Source of the DNA: Dictyostelium discoideum
Taxonomy: Eukaryota
NCBI GenBank assembly: GCA_000004695.1
Contig: CM000153.2
Location: 1,280,001-1,344,000 of the forward strand
DNA length: 64,000 bases
Direction of reading: 5' to 3'
Positions 12,301 through 61,418 of this stretch are shown here, piece after piece. A program made the translations under genes and the position numbers. The stretch's first letter is position 1. Every line of letters begins with the position of its first letter. A model generated the notes under the pieces. It was not told where the DNA came from and did not search any database. It saw only the letters and a program-made list of their open reading frames with translations.

Positions 12301-12881
12301 AATTTACACTTCAACCTGGTTCTTTAAAATTATCAGCAAACATTTCAAATTGGGAATATTTAGGACCACTTAATACTCTACAACTTCAAATTCAATCATC
12401 AGTTAAAGTAGATGCAGCACAAGATGAGAATGAATGTCATCAAAAATCAAATATCAATTCAAATGGTGATGGTGTATCATTAAATTATATTACTATTCAA
12501 AAAGATAAAAATGTATTCAGTGGTAGATTCATTGATAAGGTACTCTCTGATGGTAGACCTACCTTTTCAAAAGTTTCAATCTCTGAACAAACAGAAGATT
12601 CAATCACAGTTTCAATATCATTACCTTATTGTAAAGAATGTTTAATTGACCCTGATTTCTCTGTACTTTTATCTCAAGATGATTCAATCAATTCTTGTGG
12701 TGGAAGCTCTTCAAGATTAAAATGGGTAATACCAACAAGTATTATCTTGGGTTTATTAGGTATCATTGGTATTGCAATTGGTGCTTATTTCTTACTAAGA
12801 AATAGACTTTATGTATCTCGTTCTGGTGTAATTGTTTTAAAAAAATCAACAAAGAGTTCTTCTGATTCTTCTCGTGCTTAA
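9307..12881 (+). CDS. Type I membrane receptor-like glycoprotein A: signal peptide, Cys-capped plant-type LRRs, IPT/TIG-like domains, EGF-like module, TM anchor. About 1,017 aa. Exons approximately 9307..9403, 9491..9608, 9693..9962, 10155..10298, 10378..10686, 10766..12881.
   Basis: Signal peptide MSIIKFNNNSLFLLIFLLFHVSLSLSA. The LRR consensus is present (LxxLxLSxNxLTGxLP; MCFIC). The IPT/TIG-like segment reads YPYITAINPPTTNGGVVVVFGSYG…CNIETMNSSVIICSIGGGSG. The EGF-like module is CPGTPPCSGNGDCLNGYCVCDGGFGGEICK. The C-terminus has a TM helix (IPTSIILGLLGIIGIAIGAYFLL). Intron phases (1,2,2,2,2) are consistent with the paralogue at 13218..16843. Confidence 0.6.
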
Positions 12882-21820: not shown

Positions 21821-26170
<4,350 letters not shown>

Positions 26171-27684: not shown

Positions 27685-27907
27685 TTAATATTCGTTATTC
27701 GTATTTGTAAAGGCAGATTGTTTATTACTTAAATAATTATAACATTTTGAATAGGTTTTCCTATCTTTTCCCTCTAATTTACTACGAACTAATTCAATTA
27801 ACATTCCATCTGTATCATAACAATAATTATCTAAATTAAAACCTAATTCAACTGATACTTTTTTTAAAACATTATAATTCACATTATTATTTATATTATT
27901 ATTTTTA

Positions 27908-28002
<95 letters not shown>

Positions 28003-29325
28003 GTTATTATTATTATTATTATTATCATTATTATTATTATTATTATTTTCCAATTTTTGAGGTGATTGTTGTTGTTGATTTTTATTAATATGATTAGTAT
28101 CAAAAGCTTTCATTCTATCTTTCATTTCTTGCATTTTTGTAAAAATGAATTTATGTTCTAAATTATCTTTTTCTTCTTTTGTTAAATTTAAACCAGCCAA
28201 ATTTAATTTCTTTGAGATAACTTTAAAAATACCATCTATACTAAAGTTAAATCTTTTATAGAAATCAACCATATGATTCTCAATAAATTCTCTAATAAAA
28301 ACTTGTTCTAAAATTTGTTGAGTTGAAAATCTTGATTCTGGATTCTTATTTAATAATTTAAATAATAATGAACTTAATTCTTCATTGGGACTGAATTTTA
28401 TTTTTTAAAAAATAATATCAGAATGTATTAATATTAAAAATAAAAATAATATTAAAATAGTTGAAAAAAACACACTTACTGATTAACTGGTTTAAATATA
28501 GTAGATTCAGTTTGAATGTTTCTCATTACAGTTTCTTTTCTACCATCAAATGGTAATGATAAGGTCATTAATTCATATAATACGACGCCTAAAGACCAAA
28601 TATCCGTTTTGTTAGTGTATGGTTTTTTATTACATATTTCGTAGGAAACATATTGTGGAGTACCAGCAGTTGTATTTGCGTATAGATCAGTTTCAGACAT
28701 TAATTTTGAAACACCAAAATCTGCAATCTTTAATAACGGTATTGAATCATTACTACTACCACTACCACTACCACTACCACTACCACTATCACTACTTGAT
28801 AAAACTATATTCTTTGGTTTTATATCCCTGTGAATTATATTTTGTGAATGAATATAATTTAATGCAATAACTAATTGACAAAAGTAATGCATAATTTCAA
28901 AATCTGAAAATGGTTTACCACTTCTTTTTTGATTTTCAATTTTTTGAAATAAATCTCCATTCTCTGCAAATTCCATTATAATTACATAATTACCATTCTC
29001 AAAGAATGAATCATTCAATTTAACCACATTAACATGATCCATCACTGTTAAAATTTTACCTTCTTCTAATACTTTTTCAATATTCTCTTGATTATTTACT
29101 TGTATTGATTTTTTACAAAATACTTGACCACTTTCTTTGTGGGTAACTATTATTATTTTAATTTTGATTTTTTAAAATTAATTTAAAATACTAGGGAGAA
29201 AAAAAAAAAAAAAAAAAAAATAGTTTCTAAACACACAAACCTTTAAATGTATTTCCATATGATCCTGATCCAATTTGACTTTTTATTAGGTACTTATCTG
29301 CTGGAGAGTTCTTTTTTTTAATCAT
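27685..29325 (-). CDS. Serine/threonine protein kinase, about 485 aa, with a C-terminal poly-Asn tail. Exons on the minus strand: 29325..29241, 29146..28480, 28390..27685.
   Basis: Kinase subdomains are present: GSGSYGNTFK (Gly loop, split by a phase-1 intron), VFCKK (VAIK-like), HRDIKPKNIVL, DFGVSK and GTPQYVSYE. Donors are GTTTGT and GTAAGT. The C-terminal exon carries (AAT)n poly-Asn. Confidence 0.8.
27911..28050. repeat. (ATT)n with rare interruptions. It is (AAT)n on the minus strand, coding the poly-Asn tail of the kinase.
   Basis: Seen directly in the sequence. Confidence 0.85.
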
Positions 29326-32286: not shown

Positions 32287-32339
32287 CAAGCCAATAATAA
32301 TTAAAAAAGTGGAAATAGTTTTTTTTTTTTTAATTTAAT

Positions 32340-35300
32340 TTATTTTTTCTTTGAAGGTAAATTTGATACTTTTGTTGTAACGATATTAATAATTTGATTA
32401 ATTGTTGAGTTTTGAATTTCAGGCATGGATAATATATTTCTAGTAAATTTATTATCAGCCCAATTTTTAACTTCGACAACAAGTAATGAATCAGCACCAT
32501 AATCAATTACCTTTATATCTAAATTGAGTTTGGATTGATCAGTTGAAAGTAGTGATGCAAATTTATCAACGATATCTTGTCTAATTGAAAATTCTTTTTC
32601 GTCAGTCACAGATTCTTTTGATATGATTGGATTTAAAAAGTAATCTAATTTATATGATAGTTTATGATTTTTGTATGTTTTACAAGTAGCGTGGAATTCA
32701 AATGATGCAACCATTTTATTTGTTGATTCGTTTTGATTTTGTAAAAGTAAATCTAAACTACCCCAAACTAAATCTTTTGAAATACCAACCAAACCTTGTA
32801 ATTCAAATAATTTAAAAACAGCATCATTACGTGCAGCAAAACCACCACCTCCCAATAGACCCCAATTGATTGAAATACATGGTAGATTTAATGATTTTCT
32901 ATGTCTTGATAATGCATCTATAAAGCAATTTGAAGCTACATAACCACATTGACGTTGTGATCCTAAAATTGATGTTACTGAACTTGATAAAACAAATTGT
33001 TTTATTGGCCAATTTAATGAAAGTTTATGTAAATTGTAGGCACCCATCGATTTTGCAGAATGAGAGCTAATTAAATGATTCATATCAATCTCTAATGGTT
33101 CACATTCTGCTGGTGAAAATGCATTATGGAATATTGATTCAATTGGTTTAATATCTTTATTTTCTTCAAATAATTGATTAATTGTTTTTAATAAAAGTTT
33201 TTCATCTGAAATATCAACTTGTTTAAAATAGATTTTCAAATTTGTTGATCTTATTCTACCAATTGCTCTTTCTAATTCAAATTTAATTGGTGATTTTGAT
33301 AATACTATTATTGATTCAATAGAATCTGATCTTTTTTCTCTTATCCATTTTATGATTGTATCTGAAAGACCTGCTTGACCTGTTATTAATATTGTTTGAC
33401 CTAAAGTATCTTGATGAATTTTATAATTTGATGAACGATGGATAAAGTTGTGATTATTTGAAAATTCAGGACAATCAATTAAATCAATTCCTTCAGGATC
33501 GTTGAAATTTACAATATTTTTACCAATATGTTTTCTATCACCAAGTGATTCAATTGCTTCTTTAATTTTTGTTACTGGATATACATTGAATGGTATAGTT
33601 TTTAATTTACCACTTGCTAATAAATCAACAATAATTTTCAATACATGTTTATGTTTTCTAAAACCAGCAATGACAGATTCATAAGTCATATAACCAATAT
33701 GATTTTTAAATTTATAAAAATCGGTTGTATCTGTTGTTGTCATATGAGTGATTGATAAATCTATAATTCTACCACCTTGTGAAAGACAATTAAAGTTTGC
33801 ATCCATATAATCTGCTGATAAAGTATTAATAATTAAATCCACACAAATCATTGAAAAACCACCATATTCTTGAGATGGTGCTTTTAGTTCAATTAATTTC
33901 TCTTTAATTAAATATTCATAGTCTGTATTTTTAGTTGAATAAATCTCTGTGATGAAATTACCATAACGATCTTTTAAAAATTGTTTCTTTTCTTCAGAAC
34001 CTACAGTTACAAATAAAAATCCTTTAAATCCATATACTTGTAATAAATCGATACAAGATAAACCAATACCACCACTTCCTGAATGAATTAAAACTGTTTC
34101 AGTCGAACCATGTAAACCTAATCTACCAAGTTCGAATAAACTACAATATGAAGTTAAATAAACCAATGAGATTGATGCTTCAAACCAAGAAATGTTTGAT
34201 GGTTTTAATTCGATTCTGTCTTGATCTACATGAACACTTGATGAAAATGTATGAAAAGTAACTCCCATTACATGATCACCAACTTTGAATTTGGTCACAT
34301 TCTTACCGACTTTGGTAACGATTCCACTTAGTTCATATCCAAATTGTGGTTTTGAAGGATCACCATTTTCATTTGAATTTGCCATATTAATTAATTGACG
34401 ATAAACTAAGAAATCTTTAAAATTAACACCACTTGCCATTACTTTAACTTCAACGAAATTTGGATTCAATGGTAATACTGCTTCTAATGCAAACGTTAAA
34501 TCTGGTTTTAATCTTGAAACTAATTCATTTTTATTTTCAATATATGATTTTGATTTATATTTTAATTTTAAATTTGATTCTAATTTAATTCTTTCATAAT
34601 AAATTTTACCATCACTTCTAATTGAAAATTCATTTTGTGAATGTTTATTTGAATTTGATAATTCTTGAATAATATTAAATAATTTATCACCACCACTAAG
34701 AATATTATTACCTTCAAATTCAAATGAATAAATATTTAATTGATTGAATTCACAAAAGTATCTAAATGAACCAATTAACGATGATCCAAATAAGTTTGAA
34801 GTTTCAAAGTTTATATTTCTTGAAATTAAAATATGTTTACAACCTGAAATTTCATTTTTTAATAAATGTTGATTGATTTCTATATAGTTCATTGAGACTT
34901 GATTAAAGTTATCAACTGTTAATAGATTTACTGACTCAATAAATAATATTAATGATTTATCAGTTAATGGTTGTAATTTGGCATGTTCTTTGAATTTATC
35001 AATTGAATTTATTGCTATTGGAACCACGCCACCACTACCACAGAAAGAAGAACCAATATTAATTTCATCGCAAGTACCAAAAATTATAATTTGATCATAT
35101 TCAGATGTATGCTCTTTACTAACTGAATTAATTGAATTTGATAGATTTGGTTTTTGAACTTGAATTAAATATGGTTCAATTTCACCTGTTGAACATATGA
35201 AATTATTAAATTTCAAATCATTTATTAATAATTGATTCCATTGATTTAGTTTCATTGCACCACTACCAGAATTTAAATAATTAAATGATAACCATTGTTT

Positions 35301-38300
35301 GTAGTTTTCTAAATAATAATCTTCATCTATTGATGTTTGAATGAAATTTGTATCTAAAATTAACAAATGACCGTTTGGAGTTAAAATTTCATTTATAAAT
35401 GAAATTGATGTTTTAATATCTTTAATTTGATTTGTTGTATTTGATAGAATAATTAAATCATAATAAGATGGTGAAAATGATTGTTCTTGTAATTGTTTGT
35501 TTAAATCAATAATTTTAAAGAAACAACTCTTTTTTGAATTAAATAATCTTTCTTTAATTAATAATACTTTTGAATCGGTATAATCTGAAAATACAAATTC
35601 TATATCAATGTTATATGATGGATTATCATTTAAAATTGATTCTAAATTATCATTGATTAGTTTAGTTAATTCACCAACACCACATCCAATTTCTAAAATT
35701 CTAAAAACTATTTTTTCATTTACGATTGGAATAATTGATTTTGAAATTATATCTAAAATTAATTGATGTTGATAAATACCAATATGTGAAATACCTTTAT
35801 TTGAAACAATAGTGTCAACTACTAATAATTCGTTTGGAATGTTATTCAAGAGAAAGTTTGAAACTTGGTTTTGATCAATATGTTTGTGATGTGTTAATAA
35901 AAAGTTGATTGTTAAGAGGATTAAATTGGATCTGATAGTACCAACTTCAACCTCATCCAAGACATATGAATATTTTTCAATCAACTGTTCAAGTGAATTA
36001 TTTTGAAATTCATCAACGGTTAGGTTATTTAATCTTTTCTTTAATATGGAAAAAAGATATGTAGATAGGGTAGATATTGAAATGATATTTGATTGTTGAA
36101 GTTGAAGTTGTTGATTAAAATGTTCTTTCAATATTAATGGTGATTGTAAAATTGAATCTTTTGGTTGAAGACATTGTGAAAATAATTGATTGTTTGGACA
36201 TTCAAGATCAGTTTCACTTTTTGTTGATAGTGTAGATGCAATTGTTACCAATGGAGAATGTAATAGAACAGTGCCATCTTTTAAGAAGCAAGTTGTTTTA
36301 AAATAAATAAAATCACTAAATTGTTTAATAAGCTCAGCATAACAGTAAACGTATTGTTGCTTCACTCTATCTTCTGCAGTTAATGGAACACTTGAAGAAT
36401 AAATTTTTAAATGTTCAATTCTTTCAAAAACAGACGAAGCTGGGTTATCAAAGAAAATACATGGATGTATACATGTATCAATAATGCAAATATTTAAAAA
36501 TGATTCATTATCATAGCTTGAAGTTGGATCCAATGAAACTTTACACAAGCATCTATTATCACCATATGAAGCTTCTTCAATTCTTTGAAATGGTTCTAAT
36601 AGTGAAATGTTTGCATAATTTTTAATTAAATCATATAATTGTTCTCTTTTCAAAGTTGACCAATTACATTGATCACGTATTGATTGAACATCAACTTTTT
36701 TAACTGTTACATCTAAACTTTTCATTAAAATTCTACTATTTGCAGATTGGATCCATTTACCACTTGTTTGATCTTTAAAATTAAATGTTGCTCTATATTC
36801 ATTCTTTGCACTTTTGTAGAGATTAGTTGTAAGAGTTTTTTTTACACCTTCAGTTAATACAAATTGTGATTTAAATTCTAAAAGTGGTATGGTTAAATCT
36901 TGATTTGGGAAAAGTTTTAAAATAATATCCAAATAACCAACTCCTGGGAAAAGTGATTTACCACGAAATTGATGATCTTTTAAGAATCTAAATGGTTCTT
37001 CTTTAATATCGATATATGATGTATATGATATATGTGGCGATGATTCATTTTTATTACCAAGTTGATTTATTGGTGCTCCATTCTTTCTATTGTTTAGTGA
37101 TGAAATACCTTCTCTCCAAAATAATGATTCATCCCATTGATAATGTGGTATTAGATATGAGCATTTCTTGAATGAATTTGATGTTATTTCCGATTTAAAT
37201 TGGGCACTAAAATCGACATTGTAACCAAAACAATAAAGTTGTGAAATTGTTGATTGAATTTCATTAATATCTTCTTTTTTCTTATTTAATGATGATAATA
37301 CACTTATTGAATCTTTGTTTAAAAAGTAATTTGAATTCTTTGGAATCATTTCTTTAACATAATGGTTTAAGGTTGGATGAGGTGATAATTCTAAAAATAT
37401 TACTGAATTACCTAAATCATTTGATTCAATATGTTTGAATATATTTTCAATTGTTTGTTGAAATAATACTGGCTTTCTTAAATTGTCAAATATATAACTT
37501 GAATTATAAGGTGTATTTTTATCGAATTTATTTGATGTGACTGTTGAAAATGTTGTTATAGAAGGTGGTCTTGATTGAATATGATTGGTTGATTCTATGA
37601 TTTCATCTTTGATTATATCTTGTTTTGATGAATGAAATGCTGATGATGTACCTAATAAAGAGTTGAATATTTGTTTATCTTTTAATGATTTTGAAATATT
37701 TAATATATCAAGTTCATTACCACATACAACGATTGATGATGGTGAGTTAAAACATGAAATTTCAATTTCTGGATATTCCTTTGAAAATTGATTATTGAAT
37801 TCTTCAAGATTTAAACTAATTGCTAAAAGTCTTCCAGATCCATTGGTTTTATTTTGAATGGTTGCTCTTTTATATATCACGAAGCATGCTGTTTCTAAAT
37901 CAATCATACCTGAACAAAATGCACTGGCTACTTCTCCTAAACTATGGCCAACTATTATAGATGGTGTGATTCCCCAATGCAAATATAATTTATATAATGA
38001 TATTTGAATCATAAATATAGATGGTTGAGCTAATATTGGTTCATTAATTAGAATTGGATCATCATTAATTGATCTTAGTTTTTGAATGATTGAATATCCA
38101 AAATATTTAAATAGTATTGAATCTAATATATCCATGGATTGTTTATATATTGGTTCATTTTCATATAAATTTAAACCCATTTTTGAATATTGAGGACCTT
38201 GACCACAAAATGAAAATACTAATGGTGGATTAATATCATTTGATTTGATAATATTACCAGATTTATTATTTTTTGTTGAAATAATTTCATTTATATCAAT

Positions 38301-39278
38301 TTTTAAATCATTCCAATCATTACCAATTAAAACTGATCTTTGTGATAATTTGGTTGTTTTTGAATAAACTTGAAACATTGCAAACTCTTCAAAAGTTAAG
38401 CTTTCTGAATATGTATCAATTTCTTCAAGTAGTTTTGATTTGAATTGTTCGAGTGACTTCTTTGAGTTGGTTGAGATTGGTATTAATAATTTTGATTTTT
38501 CATTTAATTTCATAGATGTTTGATTTTTTAATTCTGAAGGTTTGATATATTCAGACAATAAAACACATGCATTTGAACCAGTTATACCAAAACTATTGAT
38601 TGCCATTGATACTTGTCTATCTGGGAATGCTGTTGTTTCTGTACATACTTTAACATTCCATTCTTTGAATTTAATATTTGGATTTGGGTTATTGAAATGA
38701 ATATTCTTTACAAATTGACGATGTTTAAACATTAAACAAACTTTTGCTAATGATGCTACACCTGATGCAGGTTCAAGATGACCAATATTTGATTTAACTG
38801 ATCCAATTAATAATGGTTCTTGTTTAACATTTTTAAAAATATCAGCAACAGCTTCAACTTCGATTGGATCACCTACTTGTGTACCTGTACTATGTAATTC
38901 AAAGAAATCAATATCTTGATATTTCATTGCACCATTGGATGATAAAAATGCATTTTTGATATTAGTTGATTGTGCATTTTTTGAAGGTGCAAAAAAGTTT
39001 GTTTTCTTAAAAGTACCATCTACATTTGAACTACTTCCTTTCATTACACAATAAATTTGATCACCATCTTGAATTGCAAGTGATAATCTTTTTAAAATTA
39101 ATACAACAACACCTTCTGAACGTACAAAACCGTCGGCAGATTCGTCAAATGAATTACATCTACCAGATTTACCTGTAATATTAATTGAATGAAATGATCT
39201 AGTAATATATGGATCTTTTTTTAGAATAATAATAATAAAAATAAAAATAAAAATATTAGAAATATGGAAATGAAAAAC

Positions 39279-39321
<43 letters not shown>

Positions 39322-40136
39322 ACTAATATTATAATAATAATAATTACTTAATAATATATTACAACCAGCTACTACAGAGTAATTTGATTTACCATTAACA
39401 ATTGATTCATATCCTAAATGAACTGCATTTAATGATGATGAACATGCTGTATCAAGTGTTAATGAAGTACCACGTAAATCAAAACAATATGATATTCTAT
39501 TTGCAAATGCACTGAGAGTACCATTAAAAACATTGATTGGTGCTTCATTTTGTTCGAAATTAATAAAAGAATAATCAGTATTTGCGGCACCAACAAAAAC
39601 AGAAGTATTGGTTCCTCTGAGTTTTAAAGGATCAATTGATGCATCTTCAAATGCTTCCCATGTTAACTTTAACATTAATTTAATTTGTGGATCAATTTGT
39701 TTAGCATCAGTTGGATTGATTCCAAAAAACAATGGTTCAAAAGAATGCCAATTCTCTTCCAAATCAATTAATCCTGCGTTCTTATTTGAGATTTCTCCCA
39801 TACTATGGAATGTGTCGCTCCATCTAAATAAATAAAAATAATAATAATTTTAAAAAAAAAAAAAAAAAAAGGAAGGCAATTGTTTGATGAAAATCAAAAA
39901 ATAAGAAAAAATGAAAAAAAAAAAAAAAAAATGAAAAAAAGCAGTGTTAGTTATGATTTTTTTTTTTTTTCATTTTTTTTTTTTTACCTTTCGTTAGAAT
40001 CAACAATTCCATCAAAACCACCAAGCAAATTTTTCCAAAATTCTGAAGGAGAACCCGAGTTACCTGGTAATCTTAGCCCAAGACCAACAATCGCAACTTG
40101 GTTATCATTGTTCTTTTCAATATTTCCTTCAATCAT
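32340..40136 (-). CDS. Highly reducing iterative type I polyketide synthase, copy 1 (2,499 aa), with domain order KS-AT-DH-CMeT-ER-KR-ACP. Exons on the minus strand: 40136..39988, 39823..39348, 39214..32340.
   Basis: KS: exon 1 MIEGNIEKNNDNQVAIVGLGLRLPG…, active-site DTACSSSL, and HSTGTQVGDPIE. AT: GHSLGEVASAFCSG. DH: HQFRGKSLFPGVGYLD. CMeT: LEIGCGVGELT. ER: LIHSGSGGIGLSCIDLLQ. KR: ILITGQAGLSDTII. ACP: IDYGADSLLVVE. Donors GTAAAA(39987) and GTAATT(39347) give intron phases 2 and 1. A (TA)17 tract lies in intron 2. Confidence 0.9.
39285..39318. repeat. (TA)17 dinucleotide microsatellite in intron 2 of PKS copy 1. The copy-2 intron has only (TA)4.
   Basis: Seen directly in the sequence. Confidence 0.9.
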
Positions 40137-40997
40137 TTTAGATTTCAAATTATCTATTTATTATAATACTTGTAACTATTGAAATGAATTATTTAAATGA
40201 GTATTTTTATATCTTCTTTCAAAAAGAAACGAATATTTAAATAATTTTTTTTTTTTTACCTCTATTTATTTTTTTTTTTTTTTTTTTTTTTTTTCTTTCT
40301 TAAGTTAGATAACCACCATTCTTTATAATTTGGATGGAAAATTTTTACAGATAATCATTGGAGGGAACATATATACACGTGCAAATGGGAAAACCCCTTT
40401 CTTTTTAAAACAATAAATAAATTTTAACTTTACATAATTACCTTCGTCCATAAATCCAAATAATAATAAATTTCTAAAATTACTGCTTTAATAAATTTTA
40501 TTGGAATGCTTCCACTTAAATCTTTATTTTGGGGGTGAAAATTTGTTTTTTTGTTTCTTGTTTTTTTTTTTTACCCCTACCACTCCTTGACTTTTTTTTA
40601 ATATCTCCCATTTTTATAATTTCATTTTTGTTTCATATAACCAAAAAGTCAAAAAAAGTTAACTTTTTTTTTTCATAAAATTTGTGATTGGACCACTTCA
40701 AAAATTTTTGCACAAATTATCTATAACTTTTTTTTTGCACTGCAATTGACCTTTTAATCGACTTACCAATTGTTGGTGATTAAAATATAAATAAATAAAA
40801 AATAAAAATAAAATAAAAATAAAAATAAACCCGCCATTGAAAAAAAATTGTTGAAAAGTCTTTATATTGTTTTTTTTTAATTATATAACGATATAGAGGA
40901 TAGAAAAAAAAAAAAAAAATTGTGTAGAAAAAAAAAAATATAAAAAAAAAAAAAAAAAAAAATATAGCTTTAAATTTAAAATTTTATATTAAGAAAA
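40137..40997. promoter_or_regulatory. Bidirectional (divergent) promoter region shared by PKS copy 1 (minus) and P450 copy 1 (plus).
   Basis: An 861-bp spacer lies between the two start codons. It contains blocks conserved with the copy-2 spacer (50598..51359) despite otherwise heavy divergence: ttgtaactattgaaatgaattatttaa, ataaccaccatt, attttattggaatg…ccactt, aaagtcaaaaaaag, aaatttgtgattg.accactt and caattga.cttttaat.cgact.accaatt…gttggtgattaaa. Confidence 0.55.
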
Positions 40998-42607
40998 ATG
41001 GAAATAATTAATGTTTTTTTGTTTCTAATCATTCTTTTCTTGGTAAAAGATTTTGTATGTATTTAAATTTTTATATTTTAGAAAATTATTACAATTTATT
41101 AATTCTTTACATAAAAAAAAAAAAAAATAAAAAAAAAAAGGTTAAAAAAAATAAGAAAATTCATACAAAATCTCCAAGTGGACCAATTGCATTTCCTATT
41201 CTTGGAAATGTTGTTCAAATTAGATTTTGGGAATTATTCAAAATTCAAGAACATGAATTATTTGGTGGTTATAGTAAAAAATATAATGGTGTTGTAAGAG
41301 CATGGTTTGGAGAAAGATTATTTTTTTTTGTTTCAAATTATGATGTTGTAAAGTATTTTCAAAAAGATGAAAACTTCCATAACAGACCATCAGTTTTAGT
41401 TCCAGGTTGGAGATATGCTTCAAGTAATGGGCTAGGTGTAATGAGCTCATCTGATGACAAATGGAAAAGAGCAAAATCAAGTGTTTCGCAATCATTAAGA
41501 GTTCGTACAACTAAAAAATTAATGGAAGAAAAAGCAATTGAATTTATTGATTCACTTGAAAAAATTTCAAATAATAATGAAATTGTAAGTTTTTAAAAAT
41601 AATAATTACAATCAAAATATTGATAACATATTAATTTATTAAATTTTTATTTTTAGTTTTATCCAAAAGGACATATTCAAGGATATGCTTGTTCAATGTT
41701 ATTCAAATATATGTTTAATCAAGATTTATCAGTTGAAAGTGGCATGTCAAGAACTATTGGTAATGCAGTTGAACATGTTTTTGGTAATCTTTCAAAATTA
41801 ACTGCATTTGATTGTTTTGAAATTTTCTCACCACTTTATGATTGGTTCTTTACAAGAAGATTAAAAGGTTGCGATATCGTTAGACAAATAATCAGTAGTC
41901 AAAATGAAAATCATTTAAAGTCAATTGATCCAAGTAAACCAAGAGATTTAATGGATGATTTGTTAATTGAATATGGATTAAATGAAATCACTAAAGAAGA
42001 TACAATGCAAATCAATCAAATTTGTTTTGATATTTTTGGACCAGCCGTTGGTACAGTTACAATCACAATGAATTGGGTAATTTTACAATTATGTAATCGT
42101 CCAGAACTTCAAGAGATTGCATATCAAGAAATTAAAAAAGCTGTCAAAGATGATGAATATGTCAATTTGAATCATAAACAAAATGCCCCTTATATCGTTG
42201 CCTTTATTAAAGAAACAATGAGACTTTGTTCAAATGGATTTGGTTTACCAAGAACTGCTAAAAATGATCAAATTTGTGGTGATTTTTTCATTCCAAAAGA
42301 TGCTATTATTTTTATTAATTATTTAGAAATTAGTCAAAATGAAGAAATCTTTAAAAATGCCAAAGAATTTAACCCAACTCGTTATTTAGATGAATCACTT
42401 CCTGTACCAAATATTCACTTTGGTGTTGGTCAAAGAGCATGTCCTGGTCGTTTTGTCGCAATCGATAAAATGTTTCTTGGAATTTCAAATTTACTTTTAA
42501 AGTATAAATTAAAAACTCAAAATGGTGAAAAAATTGATGATTCAATTCAATTTAGTGTTTCTTTAAAAGCAAAAGATTATGGAATAAAATTAGAAAAGAG
42601 AATTTAG
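40998..42607 (+). CDS. Cytochrome P450 monooxygenase, copy 1 (482 aa). Exons 40998..41054, 41141..41584, 41657..42607.
   Basis: N-terminal TM anchor MEIINVFLFLIILFLVKDF. Lys-rich hinge followed by SPSGPIAFPILGN. ExxR motif (ETMRL). Heme-binding loop FGVGQRACPG. Donors are GTATGT(41055) and GTAAGT(41585); both introns are phase 0. Confidence 0.85.
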
Positions 42608-42761
42608 AACAACAATAATAATAATAAAAATTGTATTTAATGTTTTTATTTTTTATTTTTTATTTTTATTTAATTATTTATTTATTTATTATAAATTAAA
42701 AAGTTTTTTTTAGAACAATAATAATTAAAAAATTGGAAATAGTTTTTTTTTATTTATTTAT

Positions 42762-45700
42762 TTATTTTTTCTTTGAAGGTAAATTTGATACTTTTGTTGT
42801 AACGATATTAATAATTTGATTAATTGTTGAGTTTTGAATTTCAGGCATGGATAATATATTTCTAGCAAATATATTATCAGCCCAATTTTTAACTTCGACA
42901 ACAAGTAATGAATCAGCACCATAATCAATTACCTTTATATCTAAATTGAGTTTGGATTGATCAGTTGAAAGTAGTGATGCAAATTTATCAACGATATCTT
43001 GTCTAATTGAAAATTCTTTTTCGTCAGTCACAGATTCTTTTGATATGATTGGATTTAAAAAGTAATCTAATTTATATGAAAGTTTATGATATTTGTATGT
43101 TTTACAAGTAGCGTGGAATTCAAATGATGCAACCATTTTATTTGTCGATTCGTTTTGATTTTGTAAAAGTAAATCTAAACTACCCCAAACTAAATCTTTT
43201 GAAATACCAACCGAACCTTGTAATTCAAATAATTTAAAAACAGCATCATTACGTGCAGCAAAACCACCACCTCCCAATAGACCCCAATTGATTGAAATAC
43301 ATGGTAGATTTAATGATTTTCTATGTCTTGATAATGCATCTATAAAGCAATTTGAAGCAACATAACCACATTGACGTTGTGATCCTAAAATTGATGTTAC
43401 TGAACTTGATAAAACAAATTGTTTTATTGGCCAATTTAATGAAAGTTTATGTAAATTGTAGGCACCCATCGATTTCGCAGAATGAGAGCTAATTAAATGA
43501 TTCATATCAATTTCTAATGGTTCACATTCTGCTGGTGAAAATGCATTATGGAATATTGATTCAATTGGTTTAATATCTTTATTTTCTTCAAATAGTTGAT
43601 TAATTGATTTTAATAAAAGTTTTTCATCTGAAATATCAACTTGTTTAAAATAGATTTTCAAATTTGTTGATCTTATTCTACCAATTGCTCTTTCTAATTC
43701 AAATTTAATTGGTGATTTTGATAATACTATTATTGATTCAATAGAATCTGATCTTTTTTCTCTTATCCATTTTATGATTGTATCTGAAAGACCTGCTTGA
43801 CCTGTTATTAATATTGTTTTACCTAAAGTATCTTGATGAATTTTATAATTTGACGAAGGATGGATAAAGTTGTGGTTATTTGAAAATTCAGGACAATCAA
43901 TTAAATCAATTCCTTCAGGATCGTTGAAATTTACAATATTTTTACCAATATGTTTTCTATCACCAAGTGATTCAATTGCTTCTTTAATTTTTGTTACTGG
44001 ATATACATTGAATGGTATAGTTTTTAATTTACCACTTGCTAATAAATCAACAATAATTTTCAATACATGTTTATGTTTTCTAAAACCAGCAATTACAGAT
44101 TCATAGGTCATATAACCAATATGATTTCTAAATTTATAAAAATCGGTTGTATCTGTTGTTGTCATATGAGTGATCGATAAATCTATAATTCTACCACCTT
44201 GTGAAAGACAATTAAAGTTTGCATCCATATAATCTGCTGATAAAGTATTTATAATTAAATCCACACAAATCATTGAAAAACTACCATATTCTTGAGATGG
44301 TGCTTTTAATTCAATTAATTTCTCTTTAATTAAATATTCATAGTCTGTATTTTTAGTTGAATAAATCTCTGTGATGAAATTACCATAACGATCTTTTAAA
44401 AATTGTTTCTTTTCTTCAGAACCTACAGTTACAAATAAAAATCCTTTAAATCCATATACTTGTAATAAATCGATACAAGATAAACCAATACCACCACTTC
44501 CTGAATGAATTAAAACTGTTTCAGTTGAACCATATAAATCTAATCTACCAAGTTCGAATAAACTACAATATGAAGTTAAATAAACTAAAGATTGTGATGC
44601 TTCAAACCAAGAAATGTTTGATGGTTTTAATTCGATTCTGTCTTGATCTACATGAACACTTGATGAAAATGTATGAAAAGCACCTCCCATTACATGATCA
44701 CCAACTTTGAATTTGGTCACATTCTTACCGACTTTGGTAACGATTCCACTTAGTTCATATCCAAATTGTGGTTTTGAAGGATCACCATTTTCATTTGAAT
44801 TTGCCATATTAATTAATTGACGATAAACTAAGAAATCTTTAAAATTAACACCACTTGCCATTACTTTAACTTCAACGAAATTTGGATTCAATGGTAATAC
44901 TGCTTCTAATGCAAATGTTAAATCTGGTTTTAATCTTGAAACTAATTCATTTTTATTTTCAATATATGATTTTGATTTATATTTTAATTTTAAATTTGAT
45001 TCTAATTTAATTCTTTCATAATAAATTTTACCATCACTTCTAATTGAAAATTCATTTTGTGAATGTTTATTTGAATTTGATAATTCTTGAATAATATTAA
45101 ATAATTTATCACCACCATCACCACTAAGGATATTATTACCTTCAAATTCAAATGAATATATATTTAATTGATTGAATTCACAAAAGTATCTAAATGAACC
45201 AATTAATGATGATCCAAATAAGTTTGAAGTTTCAAAGTTTACATTTCTTGAAATTAAAATATGTTTACAACCTGAAATTTCATTTTTTAATAAATGTTGA
45301 TTGATTTCTATATAGTTCATTGAGACTTGATTAAAATTATCAACTGTTAATAGATTTACTGATTCAATAAATAATATTAATGATTTATCAGTTAATGGTT
45401 GTAATTTGACATGTTCTTTAAACTTATCAATTGAATTTATTGCTATTGGAACTAAGCCATAGAAAGAAGAACCAATATTAATTTCATCACAAGTACCAAA
45501 AATTATAATTTGATCATATTCTGATGAATGCTCTTTACTAACTGAATTAATTGAATTTGATAAATTTGATTTTTGAACTTGAATTAAATATGGTTCAATT
45601 TCACCTGTTGAACATATGAAATTATTAAATTTCAAATCATTTATTAATAATTGATTCCATTGATTTAGTTTCATTGCACCACTACCAGAATTTAAATAAT

Positions 45701-48700
45701 TAAATGATAACCATTGTTTGTAGTTTTCTAAATAATAATCTTCATCTATTGATGTTTGAATGAAATTTGTATCTAAAATTAACAAATGACCGTTTGGAGT
45801 TAAAATTTCATTTATAAATGAAATTGATGTTTTAATATCTTTAATTTGATTTGTTGTATTTGATAGAATAATTAAATCATAATAAGATGGTGAAAATGAT
45901 TGTTCTTGTAATTGTTTGTTTAAATCAATAATTTTAAAGAAACAACTCTTTTTTGAATTAAATAATCTTTCTTTAATTAATAATACTTTTGAATCGGTAT
46001 AATCTGAAAATACAAATTCTATATCAATGTTATATGATGGATTATCATTTAAAATTGATTCTAATTTATCATTGATTAGTTTAGTTAATTCACCAACACC
46101 ACATCCAATTTCTAAAATTCTAAAAACTATTTTTTCATTTACGATTGGAATAATTGATTTTGAAATTATATCTAAAATTAATTGATGTTGATAAATACCA
46201 ATATGTGAAATACCTTTATTTGAAACAATAGTATCAAGAACTAATAATTCGTTTGGAATGTTATTCAAGAGAAAGTTTGAAACTTGGTTTTGATCAATAT
46301 GTTTGTGATGTGTTAATAAAAAGTTGATTGATAAGAAGATTAAATTGGATCTGAAAGTACTAGCTTCTTGAATCTCTTCCAAGATATATGAATATTTTCC
46401 GATAAACTCTTCAAGTGAACCATTTTGAAATTCATCAGTGGTTAGGTTATTCAATATTTTCTTTAATGTGGAAAAAAGATAAGAGGATAGAGTAGATATT
46501 GAAATGATATTTGATTGTTGAAGTTGAAGTTGTTGATTAAAATATTCTTTCAATATTAATGGTGATTGTAAAATTGAATCTTTTGGTTGAAGACATTGTG
46601 AAAATAATTGATTGTTTGGACATTCAATATTAGTATCAATATTTGTTGATAGAGTAGATGCAATTGTTACCAATGGAGAATGTAATAGAACAGTGCCATC
46701 TTTTAAGAAGCAAGTTGTTTTAAAATAAATAAAATCACTATATTTTTTAATAAGTTCAACATAACAGTAAACGTATTGTTGCTTCACTCTATCTTCTGCA
46801 GTTAATGGAACACTTGAAGAATAAATTTTTAAATGTTCAATTCTTTCAAAAACAGACGAAGCTGGGTTATCAAAGAAAATACATGGATGTATACATGTAT
46901 CAATAATGCAAATATTTAAAAATGATTCATTATCATAGCTTGAAGTTGGATCCAATGAAACTTTACACAAGCATCTATTATCACCATATGAAGCTTCTTC
47001 AATTCTTTGAAATGATTCTAATAGTGAAATGTTTGAATAGTTTTTAATTAAATCATATAATTGTTCTCTTTTCAAAGTTGACCAATTACATTGATCACGT
47101 ATTGATTGAACATCAACTTTTTTAACTGTTACATCTAAACTTTTCATTAAAATTCTACTATTTGCAGATTGGATCCATTTACCACTTGTTTGATCTTTAA
47201 AATTAAATGTTGCTCTATATTCATTCTTTGCACTTTTGTAGAGATTAGTTGTAAGAGTTTTTTTTACACCTTCAGTTAATACAAATTGTGATTTAAATTC
47301 TAAAAGTGGTATGGTTAAATCTTGATTTGGGAAAAGTTTTAAAATAATATCCAAATAACCAACTCCTGGGAAAAGTGATTTACCACGAAATTGATGATCT
47401 TTTAAGAATCTAAATGGTTCTTCTTTAATATCGATATATGATGTATATGATATATGTGGTGATAATTCATTTTTATTACCAAGTTGATTTATTGATGCTC
47501 CATTTTTTCTATTATTTATTGATGAAATACCTTCTCTCCAAAATAATGATTCATCCCATTGATAATGTGGTATTAGATATGAGCATTTCTTGAATGAATT
47601 TGATGTTATTTCCGATTTAAATTGGGCACTAAAATCAATATTGTAACCAAAACAATAAAGTTGTGAAATTGTTGATTGAATTTCGTTGATATCTTCTTTT
47701 TTCTTATTTAATGATGATAATACACTTATTGAATCTTTGTTTAAAAAGTAATTTGAATTCTTTGGAATCATTTCTTTAACATAATGGTTTAAAGTTGGAT
47801 GAGGTGATAATTCTAAAAATATTACTGAATTACCTAAATCATTTGATTCAATATATTTGAATATGTTTTCAATGGTTTGTTGAAATAATACTGGCTTTCT
47901 TATATTGTCAAATATATAATTTGAATCATAAGGTGTATTTTTATCGAATTTATTTGATGTGACTGTTGAAAATATTGTTATAGAAGGTGGTCTTGATTGA
48001 ATATGATTGGTTGATTCTATGATTTCATCTTTGATTATATCTTGTTTTGATGAATGAAATGCTGATGATGTACCTAATAAAGAGTTGAATATTTGTTTCT
48101 CTTTTAATGATTTTGAAATATTTAATATATCAAGTTCATTACCACATACAACGATTGATGATGGTGAGTTAAAACATGAAATTTCAATTTCTGGATATTC
48201 CTTTGAAAATTGATTATTGAATTCTTCAAGATTTAAACTAATTGCTAAAAGTCTTCCAGATCCATTGGTTTTATTTTGAATGGTTGCTCTTTTATATATC
48301 ACGAAGCATGCTGTTTCTAAATCAATCATGCCTGAACAAAATGCACTGGCTACTTCTCCTAAACTATGGCCAACTATTATAGATGGTGTGATTCCCCAAT
48401 GCAAATATAATTTATATAATGATATTTGAATCATAAATATAGATGGTAGAGCTAATATTGGTTCATTAATTAGAATTGGATCATCATTAATTGATCTTAG
48501 TTTTTGAATGATTGAATATCCAAAATATTTAAATAGTATTGAATCTAATAAATCCATGAATTCTTTGAATATTGGTTCATTTTGATATAAATTTAAACCC
48601 ATTTTTGAATATTGAGGACCTTGACCACAAAATGAAAATACTAATGGTGGATTAATATCATTTGATTTGATAATATTACCAGATTTATTATTTTTTGTTG

Positions 48701-50597
48701 AAATAATTTCATTTATATCAATTTTTAAATCATTCCAATCGTTACCAATTAAAACTGATCTTTGTGATAATTTGGTTGTTTTTGAATAAACTTGAAACAT
48801 TGCAAACTCTTCAAAAGTTAAGCTTTCTGAATATGTATCAATTTCTTCAAGTAGTTTTGATTTGAATTGTTCGAGTGACTTCTTTGAGTTGGTTGAGATT
48901 GGTATTAATAATTTAGATTTTTCATTTAATTTCATAGATGTTTGATTTTTTATTTCTGAAGGTTTGATGTATTCAGACAATAAAACACATGCATTTGAAC
49001 CAGTTATACCAAAACTATTGATTGCCATTGATACTTGTCTATCTGGGAATGCTGTTGTTTCTGTACATACTTTAACATTCCATTCTTTGAATTTAATATT
49101 TGGATTTGGGTTATTGAAATGAATATTCTTTACAAATTGACGATGTTTAAACATTAAACAAACTTTTGCTAATGATGCTACACCTGATGCAGGTTCAAGA
49201 TGACCAATATTTGATTTAACTGATCCAATTAATAATGGTTCTTGTTTAACATTTTTAAAAATATCAGCAACAGCTTCAACTTCGATTGGATCACCTACTT
49301 GTGTACCTGTACTATGTAATTCAAAGAAATCAATATCTTGATATTTCATTGCACCATTGGATGATAAAAATGCATTTTTGATATTAGTTGATTGTGCATT
49401 TTTTGAAGGTGCAAAAAAGTTTGTTTTCTTAAAAGTACCATCTACATTTGAACTACTTCCTTTCATTACACAATAAATTTGATCACCATCTTGAATTGCA
49501 AGTGATAATCTTTTTAAAATTAATACAACAACACCTTCTGAACGTACAAAACCATCAGCAGATTCATCAAATGAATTACATCTACCAGATTTACCTGTAA
49601 TATTAATTGAATGAAATGATCTAGTAATATATGGATCTTTTTTTAGAATAATAATAATAAAAAAAATAAAAATTTTAGAAATATGAAAACTATTTTATAT
49701 ATATGTGTTACCAATATTATAATAATAATTACTTAATAATATATTACAACCAGCTACTACAGAGTAATTTGATTTACCATTAACAATTGATTCATATCCT
49801 AAATGAACTGCATTTAATGATGATGAACATGCTGTATCAAGTGTTAATGAAGTACCACGTAAATCAAAACAATATGATATTCTATTTGCAAATGCACTGA
49901 GAGTACCATTAAAAATATTGATTGGTGCTTCATTTTGTTCGAAATTAATCAAAGAATAATCAGTATTTGCGGCACCAACAAAAACAGAAGTATTGGTTCC
50001 TCTGAGTTTTAAAGGATCAATTGATGCATCTTCAAATGCTTCCCATGTTAACTTTAACATTAATTTAATTTGTGGATCAATTTGTTTAGCATCAGTTGGA
50101 TTGATTCCAAAAAACAATGGCTCAAAAGAATGCCAATTCTCTTCCAAATCAATTAATCCTGCATTCTTATTTGAGATTTCTCCAATACTATGGAGTGTGT
50201 CGCTCCATCTAAATAAAAAATAATAATTTAAAAAAAAAAAAAAAAAAGAAGATAATGATGAAAATAAAAAAAAAGAAAAAAATTAAAATAAAAAAAAAAC
50301 GGTGTGTTAGTGGTGGGTCACGATAACTTTTTTTTTTTATATTTTTATTTTTATTTTATTTTTTTTTTTTTTTTATTTTTTTTTTTTTTTTTTATAATTC
50401 CCATTTTATATTATTTATTTTTTAATTATTTTTTTTTTTTTTTTTTACCTTTGATTAGAATCAACAATTCCATCAAAACCATCAAGCAAGTTTTTCCAAA
50501 ATTCTAAAGGAGAACCCGAGTTACCTGGTAATCTTAGCCCAAGACCAACAATCGCAACTTGGTTATCATTGTTCTTTTCAAAATTTCCTTCGATCAT
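42762..50597 (-). CDS. Highly reducing iterative type I polyketide synthase, copy 2 (2,499 aa, KS-AT-DH-CMeT-ER-KR-ACP), a tandem paralogue of copy 1. Exons on the minus strand: 50597..50449, 50208..49733, 49636..42762.
   Basis: Exon lengths are identical to copy 1 (149/476/6875 nt). The main exon is about 98-99% identical at DNA level. Differences are confined to a few patches and three compensating in-frame indels. Confidence 0.9.
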
Positions 50598-51359
50598 TTT
50601 AGATTTCAATTTATATATTTATTATAAAATTTGTAACTATTGAAATGAATTATTTAATTAAGTAATTTTTTTTTTTTTTTTTTATTCTTTTGAAATATTT
50701 AAATAATATTTTTTTTTAACCTTTAAATTAAATAACCACCATTTTTTATTTTATTTATTTTATTATATTATATTATATTTTTTTCTTTAAATTAAATAAC
50801 CACCATTTAATAAAAATTTGGACAATTGCCGACAGATAATCACTCAAAAAAAAAAAAAAAAAAATTTTATTGGAATGTACCACTTGTAAGATCTTAATTT
50901 TGGGCTAAAATTTGTTTTTTGTTTTTTTTTATTTTTGTTTTTTTTATTTTTTGTTTTTTTTTATTTTTTAATTTTTTTAATTTAAATTAATTACCACACC
51001 TTTTTTATAATATCATTTTTGTTTTTTATAAAAAGTCAAAAAAAGGTTTAAACCTTTAACTTTTTTTAATTTTTTTTTAATAAAATTTGTGATTGAACCA
51101 CTTAAAATTTTTTTGTTTTTCAAATTATCTTTTTTTTACCTGTAATTGATCTTTTAATTAATCGACTCACCAATTAATTGTTGGTGATTAAATCATAAAA
51201 AATAAAAAAATAAAAAAATAAATAAAAGATAAAAACAAAATAAACCTTCCATTTAAAAAAAATTGTTGTCAAGAAAAAAAAAAGAGGAGGATAAAAAAAA
51301 AAAAAAATAATTGTTAAGAAAAAAAAAAAAAAGTTAGTAATACTATATTATTAAGAGAA
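50598..51359. promoter_or_regulatory. Bidirectional promoter region shared by PKS copy 2 and P450 copy 2.
   Basis: It has the same conserved blocks as 40137..40997. The AACCACCATT-containing unit occurs twice here, at 50734..50743 and 50797..50806. Confidence 0.55.
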
Positions 51360-52963
51360 ATGGAAATAGTTAATGTTTTATTATTTCTAATTATACTTTT
51401 CTTGGTGAAAGATTTTGTATGTATCTAAATTTTCTATATTTTAGAAATAATTAAAATTACTTAATTAATTCTTTACAAAAAAAAAAAAGGTTAAAAAAAA
51501 TAAGAAAATTCATACAAAATCTCCAAGTGGACCAATTGCATTTCCTATTCTTGGAAATGTTGTTCAAATTAGATTTTGGGAATTATTCAAAATTCAAGAA
51601 CATGAATTAATTGGTAATTATAGTAAAAAATATAATGGTGTTGTAAGAGCATGGATTGGAGAAAGATTATTTTTATTTGTTTCAAATTATGATGTTGTAA
51701 AGTATTTTCAAAAAGATGAAAATTTCCTTTACAGACCATCACTTTTAGTTCCAGGTTGGAGATATGCTTCAAGTAATGGATTAGGTGTAATGAGCTCATC
51801 TGATGACGAATGGAAAAGAGCAAAATCAAGTGTTTCTCAATCATTAAGAGTTCATACATCTAAAAAATTAATGGAAGAAAAAGCAATTGAATTTATTGAT
51901 TCACTTGAAAAAATTTCAAATAATAATGAAATTGTAGGTTTTTTTTTAAAGAAATAATAATTACAATTAAAATTATTGATAACATATTAATTTATTAAAT
52001 AATTATTTTAAGTTTTATCCAAAAGGACATATTCAAGGATATGCTTGTTCAATGTTATTCAAATATATGTTTAATCAAGATTTATCAGTTGAAAGTGGCA
52101 TGTCAAGAACTATTGGTAATGCAGTTGAACATGTTTTTGGTAATCTTTCAAAATTAACTGCATTTGATTGTTTTGAAATTTTCTCACCACTTTATGATTG
52201 GTTCTTTACAAGAAGATTAAAAGGTTGCGATATCGTTAGACAAATAATCAGTAGTCAAAATGAAAATCATTTAAAGTCAATTGATCCAAGTAAACCAAGA
52301 GATTTAATGGATGATTTGTTAATTGAATATGGATTAAATGAAATCACTAAAGAAGATACAATGCAAATCAATCAAATTTGTTTTGATATTTTTGGACCAG
52401 CCGTTGGTACAGTTACAATCACAATGAATTGGGTAATTTTACAATTATGTAATCGTCCAGAACTTCAAGAGATTGCATATCAAGAAATTAAAAAAGCTGT
52501 CAAAGATGATGAATATGTCAATTTGAATCATAAACAAAATGCCCCTTATATCGTTGCCTTTATTAAAGAAACAATGAGACTTTGTTCAAATGGATTTGGT
52601 TTACCAAGAACTGCTAAAAATGATCAAATTTGTGGTGATTTTTTCATTCCAAAAGATGCTATTATTTTTATTAATTATTTAGAAATTAGTCAAAATGAAG
52701 AAATCTTTAAAAATGCCAAAGAATTTAACCCAACTCGTTATTTAGATGAATCACTTCCTGTACCAAATATTCACTTTGGTGTTGGTCAAAGAGCATGTCC
52801 TGGTCGTTTTGTCGCAATCGATAAAATGTTTCTTGGAATTTCAAATTTACTTTTAAAGTATAAATTAAAATCTCAAAATGGTGAAAAAATTGATGATACA
52901 ATTCATTTTAGTGTTTCTTTAAAAGCAAAAGATTATGGAATAAAATTAGAAAAGAGAATTTAG
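51360..52963 (+). CDS. Cytochrome P450 monooxygenase, copy 2 (482 aa). Exons 51360..51416, 51490..51933, 52013..52963.
   Basis: Same exon structure and phases as copy 1. Exon 3 is identical in protein sequence except for 3 residues near the C-terminus. Exon 2 carries 10 substitutions and exon 1 carries 2. Confidence 0.85.
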
Positions 52964-53064
52964 AACAATAAAAATAATTGTATTTAATTCAAATTATTAT
53001 CCCAATTCATTGATTTAAATAATTATTATTAATAAAGACTTTTTTTAAAAAAAAAATTATTTTT

Positions 53065-58241: not shown

Positions 58242-61418
<3,177 letters not shown>

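Follow-up and report, generated by a model that had tools for sequence, protein, structure and literature searches.

That tandem duplicates evolve in concert through gene conversion, with regulatory flanks that diverge, is textbook knowledge. In Dictyostelium discoideum, products and regulation are, to our knowledge, established for very few polyketide synthase (PKS) genes. The organism has ~40 such genes (Zucko et al. 2007, as cited in PMC6524965). The closest described gene pairs are DdTPS8-CYP521A1, arranged head to head around a 685-bp spacer, and DdTPS2-CYP519C1, with a spacer of 580 bp (Chen et al. 2019, PMC6524965). CYP521A1 was picked by its co-expression with DdTPS8, consecutive catalysis by the two enzymes was demonstrated experimentally, and the PKS genes were suggested as a place where more natural-product chemistry of this sort is likely to be found (PMC6524965). 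In the sigN group 2 promoters of the same organism, paralogous comparison gave short G/C-containing boxes that were proposed to regulate contiguous opposite genes; these boxes, which come in pairs, match the GBF consensus, and lacZ reporters were used to test the promoters (PMC2257962). Here we analyze a 64-kb stretch of D. discoideum AX4 chromosome 4 (G+C ~22%), which we call the window, and the spacers of two PKS-cytochrome P450 gene pairs within it. A first-pass annotation made from the letters alone had read short blocks shared by these spacers as phylogenetic footprints, and thus as candidate cis-elements driving coordinated expression of PKS and P450. We find that the spacers are homologous and that they lie in a divergent island amid genes homogenized by gene conversion, and we judge it reasonably probable that they are paralogous promoter regions of an old tandem duplication, in which the blocks are mostly leftover ancestry and a few have regulatory support.

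The duplicated gene pairs and their divergent island

Comparison of the window with itself reveals a tandem duplication (unit 1, 32292-42622; unit 2, 42716-52978) whose genes are 96-97% identical. Each unit is a head-to-head pair, pks22(-)/cyp517A1(+) and pks23(-)/cyp517A4(+), whose two start codons flank a shared spacer shorter than 1 kb and point outward (40136 and 40998 in unit 1, 50597 and 51360 in unit 2; Table 1). The PKS genes were spliced by hand, three exons each, and identified by exact look-up of the spliced model; Pks23 belongs to the Pks22 sequence cluster, under an accession (EAL65453) that stands between the P450 accessions EAL65452 and EAL65454. Exact protein matches for CYP517A1, CYP517A4 and Pks22 bear out the gene assignment and the divergent-promoter setting from which the first-pass annotation started. 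The same PKS(-)/P450(+) arrangement is present in D. dimigraforme (724-bp spacer), D. citrinum (837 bp) and D. firmibasis (505 bp).

The similarity between the two spacers is real. Their best collinear chain of exact matches, each containing at least two G or C, comprises 15 blocks and 174 nt, whereas 300 dinucleotide shuffles gave chains of 38.5 ± 10.2 nt with a best of 64 (z = 13.3); the similarity therefore reflects homology. All of the motifs listed earlier are present at the coordinates given or within 1 nt, and within the window each string is unique to the two spacers, except the short CCACTT and ACCAATT. They include ATTTTATTGGAATG (40495 and 50864) followed by CCACTT (40512 and 50880), AAAGTCAAAAAAAG (40645 and 51032), a 27-mer beside the PKS start (block B0), and a near-palindrome formed by ACCAATT (40765 and 51169) and GTTGGTGATTAAA (40772 and 51180), which adjoin in copy 1 and are 4 nt apart in copy 2. 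Equally good blocks had gone unlisted: ACAGATAATCA, ATCTT(T/A)ATTTTGGG (40520 and 50891), TTTTTATAAT.TCATTTTTGTTT (40611 and 51002), CAAATTATCT (40713 and 51121), TTAATCGACT (40754 and 51158) and AAAAAAAATTGTTG (40840 and 51255). Some details had to be corrected. AACCACCATT lies at 40311 and 50734 as described, and its third copy begins at 50798 instead of 50797; the repeated unit around it in copy 2, put at about 45 bp, is a 64-nt tandem duplication; and the AAATTTGTGATTG.ACCACTT element is found at 40678 and 51083, its trailing.AAAA fitting copy 1 only. The description of the spacers as largely unalignable was overstated, since their P450-proximal 40% aligns at ~80% identity and their left-centre at 58-69%. 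Every alignment reported here is of low-complexity DNA, and the tests rest on few, partly non-independent sequences.

The spacers differ far more than the genes around them, with identity falling sharply at the 5′ ends of the genes and in the spacer. Gene bodies of the two units are 96.6-99.7% identical: PKS exon 3 is at 98-98.5% (synonymous divergence, dS, 0.01-0.07), PKS intron 2 at 98%, and P450 exon 3 at 99.7% with dS = 0, including 600 nt without any difference. Identity drops to 79% in PKS intron 1, to 73% in P450 intron 1, and to 71% of aligned columns in the spacer body, which has a further 209 gap columns. This island of ~1.3 kb is the non-homogenized part of a 10.4-kb repeat, and poor conservation thus extends beyond the spacer.

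Orthologous loci were taken from seven other Dictyostelium assemblies by way of the P450, with species and strain labels as in the NCBI records. Over a 2-kb PKS segment, identity is 98.4% between AX4 pks22 and pks23 and 99.1% between the two copies in 'D. cf. discoideum' ACTFIZ, versus ~94% from one of these genomes to the other. The spacers associate differently: spacer b of ACTFIZ shares 175 nt with AX4 spacer 1 and 52 nt, the chance level, with its neighbor, spacer a; AX4 spacer 2 groups with that of ACTFIW (338 nt), and the ACTFIR spacer with that of locus L009 (256 nt). Because gene bodies cluster by genome and spacers by type, the tandem duplicates at this locus evolve in concert by gene conversion, around a regulatory island that is not converted. 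Because the spacers group by type across genomes, spacers 1 and 2 separated before these lineages did. At least three sequence types of the island survive among the sibling lineages, and which unit carries a given type varies by strain.

Strain ACTFIT (GCA_054883475.1; L010:8946-10600 and L001:8940-10600) carries its islands in the opposite units relative to AX4 (39930-41600 and 50300-51950). Its upstream unit, with a pks22-like body (100% identical in a 2-kb segment), bears a spacer-2-type island, and its adh-proximal unit, with a pks23-like body, bears a spacer-1-type island. The ACTFIT P450s are reciprocal chimeras, P0016 joining an A4-like N-terminus to an A1-like C-terminus, and P0001 showing the opposite arrangement. 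The swap is only as reliable as the two assemblies of this repeat, whose copies are 97-98% identical; it would be either a genuine exchange of cassettes or an assembly error in one of the genomes. The number of PKS-P450 units also varies: ACTFIW and ACTFIR have one, AX4 and ACTFIT two, and ACTFIZ two complete units and, upstream, a third P450 gene that extends past the edge of the fetched locus. In ACTFIY, the unit at the syntenic position is decayed (L006; a PKS frameshift, deletions of ~0.7 and 0.6 kb, and a truncated P450), and an intact unit (L009) lies ~150 kb away. Within the otherwise homogenized PKS body, a second patch of low identity lies in exon 3 of pks22 compared with pks23 (35349-36350; 91% in the 200 nt of 35955-36154). 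This 1-kb segment holds 29 non-synonymous and nine synonymous differences (non-synonymous divergence, dN, 0.037; dS 0.045), and it may have escaped conversion or may diverge in function.

Ancestry and constraint in the shared blocks

How would collinear blocks arise in sequence of this kind? Gene conversion keeps the gene bodies near-identical and halts before the 1.3-kb island, which, escaping conversion, has gone on accumulating differences from a time earlier than the separation of D. discoideum and its closest sibling lineages. In such AT-rich DNA, slippage and indels would quickly scramble homopolymer and microsatellite runs, and higher-complexity sequence would change by point substitution alone. 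With the A/T runs erased, complex stretches would be what remains as collinear exact blocks after ~25-30% divergence. We infer that alignability eroded in this manner, with complex stretches surviving as blocks without selection, and that most blocks need no selection to explain them. The first introns beside the spacer, which are the nearest available neutral standard, are about as diverged as the spacer itself (73-79% identity) and show the same pattern of exact runs and indels.

Independent lineages keep the blocks only at the background rate. Agreement with AX4 in L008a, L008b, L009 and L006 is 0.64-0.76 at block positions, 0.67-0.75 at the other positions shared by the AX4 spacers, and 0.57-0.86 in introns; only L005, the closest relative, shows a small block advantage (0.96 versus 0.87). 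Whole blocks are missing from loci whose genes are intact: L009, with both PKS and P450 intact, is without AAAGTCAAAAAAAG (B3) and the GTGATTG.ACCACTT block (B4), L011 is without B4, and L008a is without AACCACCATT and the palindrome. The palindrome is also missing from the decayed locus L006. Together, background-level retention, block loss in intact relatives and intron-like decay mean that the footprint reading is not carried by the evidence. What stands of it is the homology of the blocks, as parts of a shared upstream region; the evidence of selective constraint on them is weak.

Other species were compared as well. None of the listed blocks was found at up to two mismatches in the spacers of D. 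dimigraforme, D. citrinum or D. firmibasis, and B0 was not found in those of D. citrinum or D. firmibasis. Collinear chains against the latter two species are at shuffle level (z -1.6 to +1.1), and k-mers common to both AX4 spacers show no enrichment in D. firmibasis (P 0.69) and a marginal one in D. dimigraforme and D. citrinum (P 0.07-0.23). The first-pass annotation had made its proposal depend on conservation at orthologous loci; in D. citrinum and D. firmibasis the blocks are lost.

Several results weigh against leftover ancestry as an account of every block. We simulated neutral change by introducing into spacer 1 substitutions matched for composition, together with indels that followed the observed spectrum, and realigning the product like the real pair. 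At 72% simulated identity, 2.9 exact runs of at least 12 nt are expected and seven are observed (~2.4-fold); for runs of 16 nt or longer the expectation is 0.8 and the observed count four (P ~0.05 or less in both cases). At 77% the long-run excess is gone (P 0.13-0.22), the whole range of P being 0.017-0.22 according to the divergence assumed. Rate heterogeneity is therefore modest and depends on this assumption, and large replaced left-centre segments could also cause the excess. The D. dimigraforme spacer is collinear with spacer-2-type sequences only (z 3.0-4.5), through AATTACCACACC, CATTTTTGT, AAAAAAAGG, TTGTGATTG, GTTTCAAAT and ATTGATCT; from the list in the first-pass annotation it retains only TTGTGATTG, in the B3/B4 region, and the two sets of blocks overlap in part; ATTACCACACC too belongs to the subset it keeps. 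Introns of D. dimigraforme and D. discoideum, over 638 nt, have in common only A-rich runs and one GTGTGTT. Because D. dimigraforme keeps a subset of blocks while the introns share almost nothing complex, this comparison is the one result to suggest that part of the spacer is under constraint. Within the D. discoideum complex, the best-kept sequences over its ten spacers are ATCTTAATTTTGGG and the core of the 27-mer next to the PKS. Finally, the comparison of independent lineages given above, made on low-complexity alignments, has low power.

These points bear on the strongest alternative, that most blocks are true transcription-factor sites under purifying selection and form a shared upstream activating region for coordinated divergent transcription of PKS and P450. 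We regard this as possible but doubtful. The blocks are the GC-containing islands of the spacer, and such islands are the usual place of Dictyostelium transcription-factor sites. Long exact runs exceed the neutral simulation, some blocks are retained in D. dimigraforme, and the head-to-head layout is kept with a 0.5-0.9-kb spacer in D. dimigraforme, D. citrinum and D. firmibasis, as it is in the validated DdTPS8-CYP521A1 pair with its co-expressed P450 (PMC6524965). However, retention in independent lineages at background level, the loss of whole blocks beside intact genes and their absence from D. citrinum and D. firmibasis all speak against it. Literature searches on cyp517A, pks22/pks23 and the four DDB_G identifiers found no expression or promoter data for these genes.

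Matches to known motifs do not favor the alternative either. A motif search of the kind that the first-pass annotation had proposed shows no enrichment of GBF, Myb, STAT, CArG, CRE or GATA consensus sites in the spacers. For the GBF consensus (T/G)G(T/G)G(T/G)G(T/G) (PMC2257962), each AX4 spacer has one isolated half-site, at non-homologous positions (TGGGGGT at 40530; CCACACC at 50994, in the central CA-rich element of copy 2), with no enrichment (P 0.2-0.3) and no closely spaced pair in either AX4 spacer. Myb YAACKG has zero matches in any spacer, STAT-like TTGA repeats, CArG and CRE sites are essentially absent from the spacers, and the E-box CACGTG occurs in spacer 1 only (40376). GATA sites, scanned with the GtaC motif preference (PMC4506546), number 3-4 per spacer versus 1.4-2.0 expected, overall not an enrichment, and one WGATAR lies in the conserved ACAGATAATCA. 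The ACCACC core of block B1 occurs four times in the D. citrinum and D. firmibasis spacers versus 0.5-0.7 expected from 25 kb of other intergenic DNA (P ~0.002). AACCAC likewise looked promising beside intergenic controls. In an unbiased scan of 572 hexamers against a 52-kb low-GC control, ACCACC ranks only 29th and AACCAC 10th; because the core is not significant after multiple testing, both were dropped as conserved motifs and we make no claim for ACCACC.

The sole true pair of GBF-consensus half-sites lies outside the spacers, in intron 1 of pks23 (50301-50318). This double G-box-like element, GGTGTGTTAGTGGTGGGT, has its two half-sites separated by 4 nt; ACTFIT carries an identical element, pks22 (~39942-39957) and L005 have degenerate versions, and the corresponding PKS intron of D. 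dimigraforme has three TGTGTGT clusters.

The persistence of island types admits another, in our view unlikely, interpretation: the islands would be regulatory cassettes held distinct by selection, giving otherwise identical PKS-P450 units different expression (subfunctionalization) while conversion keeps the enzymes identical, and the cassettes could trade places between units, as in the comparison of AX4 with ACTFIT. Were this true, the 27-mer, ATCTTAATTTTGGG and the central CA-rich/TATA-like block would be a shared core promoter, and type-specific sequence would carry the regulatory differences.

We consider it improbable that the blocks have been kept alike by occasional short-patch gene conversion between the spacers, as spill-over from conversion of the gene bodies. 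Conversion is clearly active in the flanks, the first 72 bp beside the PKS ATG, including the 27-mer, are still 90% identical, and another strain has chimeric P450 alleles and swapped islands. Yet blocks with similar decay occur in single-unit genomes and in the spacer types of other lineages, spacers cluster by type across genomes and not within a genome, and the blocks are only 10-17 nt amid diverged sequence, compared with the 600-nt identical stretch in the P450 body. Chance matching of unrelated AT-rich sequences, for which spacers of 81-86% A+T would make short A/T-only matches frequent, is ruled out for practical purposes by the shuffle test of the G/C-containing chain and by the near-complete confinement of the blocks to the two spacers within 64 kb.

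Candidate promoter parts and other features of the locus

If the spacers are paralogous promoter regions with mostly ancestral blocks, a minority of the blocks probably coincides with working promoter parts, namely the B0 27-mer and the central CA-rich/TATA-like/oligo-T block. B0 is present with 0-4 errors in all ten spacers of the D. discoideum complex, and it is plausibly a PKS 5′ untranslated region or core promoter. The central block lies close to where spacer 1, T-rich on the + strand in its PKS-side half, becomes A-rich in its P450-side half. Two of its parts, AATTACCACACC and CATTTTTGT, are collinear in D. dimigraforme, which makes it the best cross-species candidate and, plausibly, the best candidate for a shared upstream element. 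Putative promoter parts are possibly also ATCTTAATTTTGGG (block By), found with at most two errors in 10/10 spacers of the complex, the GATA-like ACAGATAATCA (Bx), exact in 6/10, and the CACCAAT/ATTGGTG palindrome (B5).

The inner arms of the B5 palindrome are (T)CACCAA and TTGGTG(A), and the length of its centre differs between the copies. Folded as DNA it reaches -5.4 to -6.4 kcal/mol (z -1.4 to -3.1); given this weak fold and no compensatory changes, we rejected it as a structured hairpin. In one ACTFIZ spacer (L008:20253-20366) the palindrome region has grown into an inverted repeat with 43-nt arms, 88% complementary, around a 28-nt loop, which folds as DNA at -27 kcal/mol (z = -6.7). This expansion suggests a tendency of the site to undergo template switching or to form hairpins. 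Non-coding and transfer RNAs in the spacers were dropped from consideration, as scans of the entire window with Rfam at gathering thresholds and with ARAGORN gave no match and no tRNA, respectively.

Table 1. Positions of the genes, spacers, shared blocks and divergent island in window coordinates
Feature	Position	Strand	Remarks
pks22 (DDB_G0284001, Q54QD3)	32340..40136	-	exons 40136..39988, 39823..39348, 39214..32340; 2499 aa; hand-spliced model translates exactly to AX4 Pks22
cyp517A1 (DDB_G0283929, Q54QD2)	40998..42607	+	exons 40998-41054, 41141-41584, 41657-42607; translated exons match without mismatch
pks23 (DDB_G0283931, Q54QD1)	42762..50597	-	exons 50597..50449, 50208..49733, 49636..42762; 2499 aa; hand-spliced model
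cyp517A4 (DDB_G0283933, Q54QD0)	51360..52963	+	exons 51360-51416, 51490-51933, 52013-52963; exact protein match
Spacer 1, pks22/cyp517A1	40137..40997		861 bp; head-to-head; GC 19%
Spacer 2, pks23/cyp517A4	50598..51359		762 bp; head-to-head; GC 14%
Divergent island, unit 1 (pks22 intron 1, exon 1, spacer, cyp517A1 exon 1, intron 1)	39824..41140		~1.3 kb; unit 2 partner 50209-51489; from identity profile
B0 TTGTAACTATTGAAATGAATTATTTAA	40170..40196 and 50631-50657		34-60 nt upstream of PKS ATG
B1 ATAACCACCATT	40309..40320; 50732-50743; 50796-50807		copy 2 sites within the 64-nt tandem duplication
Tandem duplication of 64 nt in spacer 2, doubling B1	50678-50741 and 50742-50805		two copies, 78% identical
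Bx ACAGATAATCA	40347..40357 and 50832-50842		WGATAR (GATA-type) core; 2 matches vs 0.06 expected in window
B2 + By AAATTTTATTGGAATG..CCACTT..ATCTT(T/A)ATTTTGGG	40493..40533 and 50862-50904		ATTGG (inverted CCAAT) core and G-run
Central CA-rich element and TATA-like/oligo-T block ACCCCTACCACTCC...TTTTTATAATTTCATTTTTGTTT	40573..40633		near T-rich to A-rich switch on + strand
Central element, copy 2 ATTACCACACC-TTTTTTATAATATCATTTTTGTTT	50990-51024
B3 AAAAAGTCAAAAAAAG + B4 ATAAAATTTGTGATTG(G/A)ACCACTT	40643..40698 and 51030-51103
B5 imperfect palindrome TTAATCGACT(T/C)ACCAATT(N0-4)GTTGGTGATTAAA	40754..40784 and 51158-51192
B6 + B7 AAAATAAACC..CCATT.AAAAAAAATTGTTG	40822..40853 and 51237-51268		A-rich stretch upstream of P450 ATG

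Several observations concern genes beyond the two pairs. At 4 kb downstream of its first cyp517A-like P450, D. dimigraforme has a second (L002:15605-17239; 84% identical to the window genes at the nucleotide level), with no PKS partner directly upstream. Upstream of the PKS cluster, a further duplicated segment of the window (12036-12665 versus 16031-16636; 90% identity over 630 nt) lies between two + strand open reading frames, whose counterparts in D. citrinum and D. dimigraforme have ComC-type Pfam matches (LRR_ComC, TIG, ComC_SSD) and adjoin the P450. Long repetitive stretches within open reading frames at 21856-22074, 27871-28100 and 58375-58598, mutually 86-97% identical in a 3- or 6-nt register, probably encode homopolymeric runs of amino acids (Asn/Gln-type) of the kind typical of Dictyostelium.

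Comparison with described systems

Similarity between two paralogous spacers in one genome does not by itself amount to footprinting here, because the spacers are only ~25-30% diverged and the flanking genes have been homogenized; conversion of those genes makes the spacer look more exceptional than is warranted. The cis-element interpretation of the blocks is thus a hypothesis with weak comparative support, and the blocks are candidate sites. As such, the list of candidate promoter elements for the PKS-P450 pair would be useful for reporter design or for cluster activation. Of more interest than the blocks are the promoter islands that escape conversion and persist across lineages, and the locus is a neat, compact case of concerted evolution from which a regulatory island escapes.

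Head-to-head pairs of an enzyme and a cytochrome P450, the comparison of paralogous promoters, and concerted evolution have each been described before, and this locus is a new instance of them. Like DdTPS8-CYP521A1, and in the same organism, it pairs a backbone enzyme with a P450 transcribed divergently from a shared spacer, here of 861 or 762 bp. Unlike that pair, for which co-expression and catalysis were shown, the PKS-P450 pair is known from sequence alone, and it is tandemly duplicated and evolving in concert. As with the sigN group 2 promoters, short G/C-containing boxes emerge from AT-rich spacers when paralogous promoters of one genome are compared; by contrast with the paired, reporter-tested GBF boxes of sigN, each AX4 PKS/P450 spacer holds a single isolated half-site, and its elements are candidates by sequence. 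The locus also shares the general features of concerted evolution, in that within-genome paralogs are closer than between-genome orthologs, tracts with dS = 0 occur, identity drops sharply at the 5′ ends, and alleles are mosaic. It departs from the general case in that the non-converted part is a compact, 1.3-kb bidirectional promoter island, which exists in at least three types and whose unit differs by strain.

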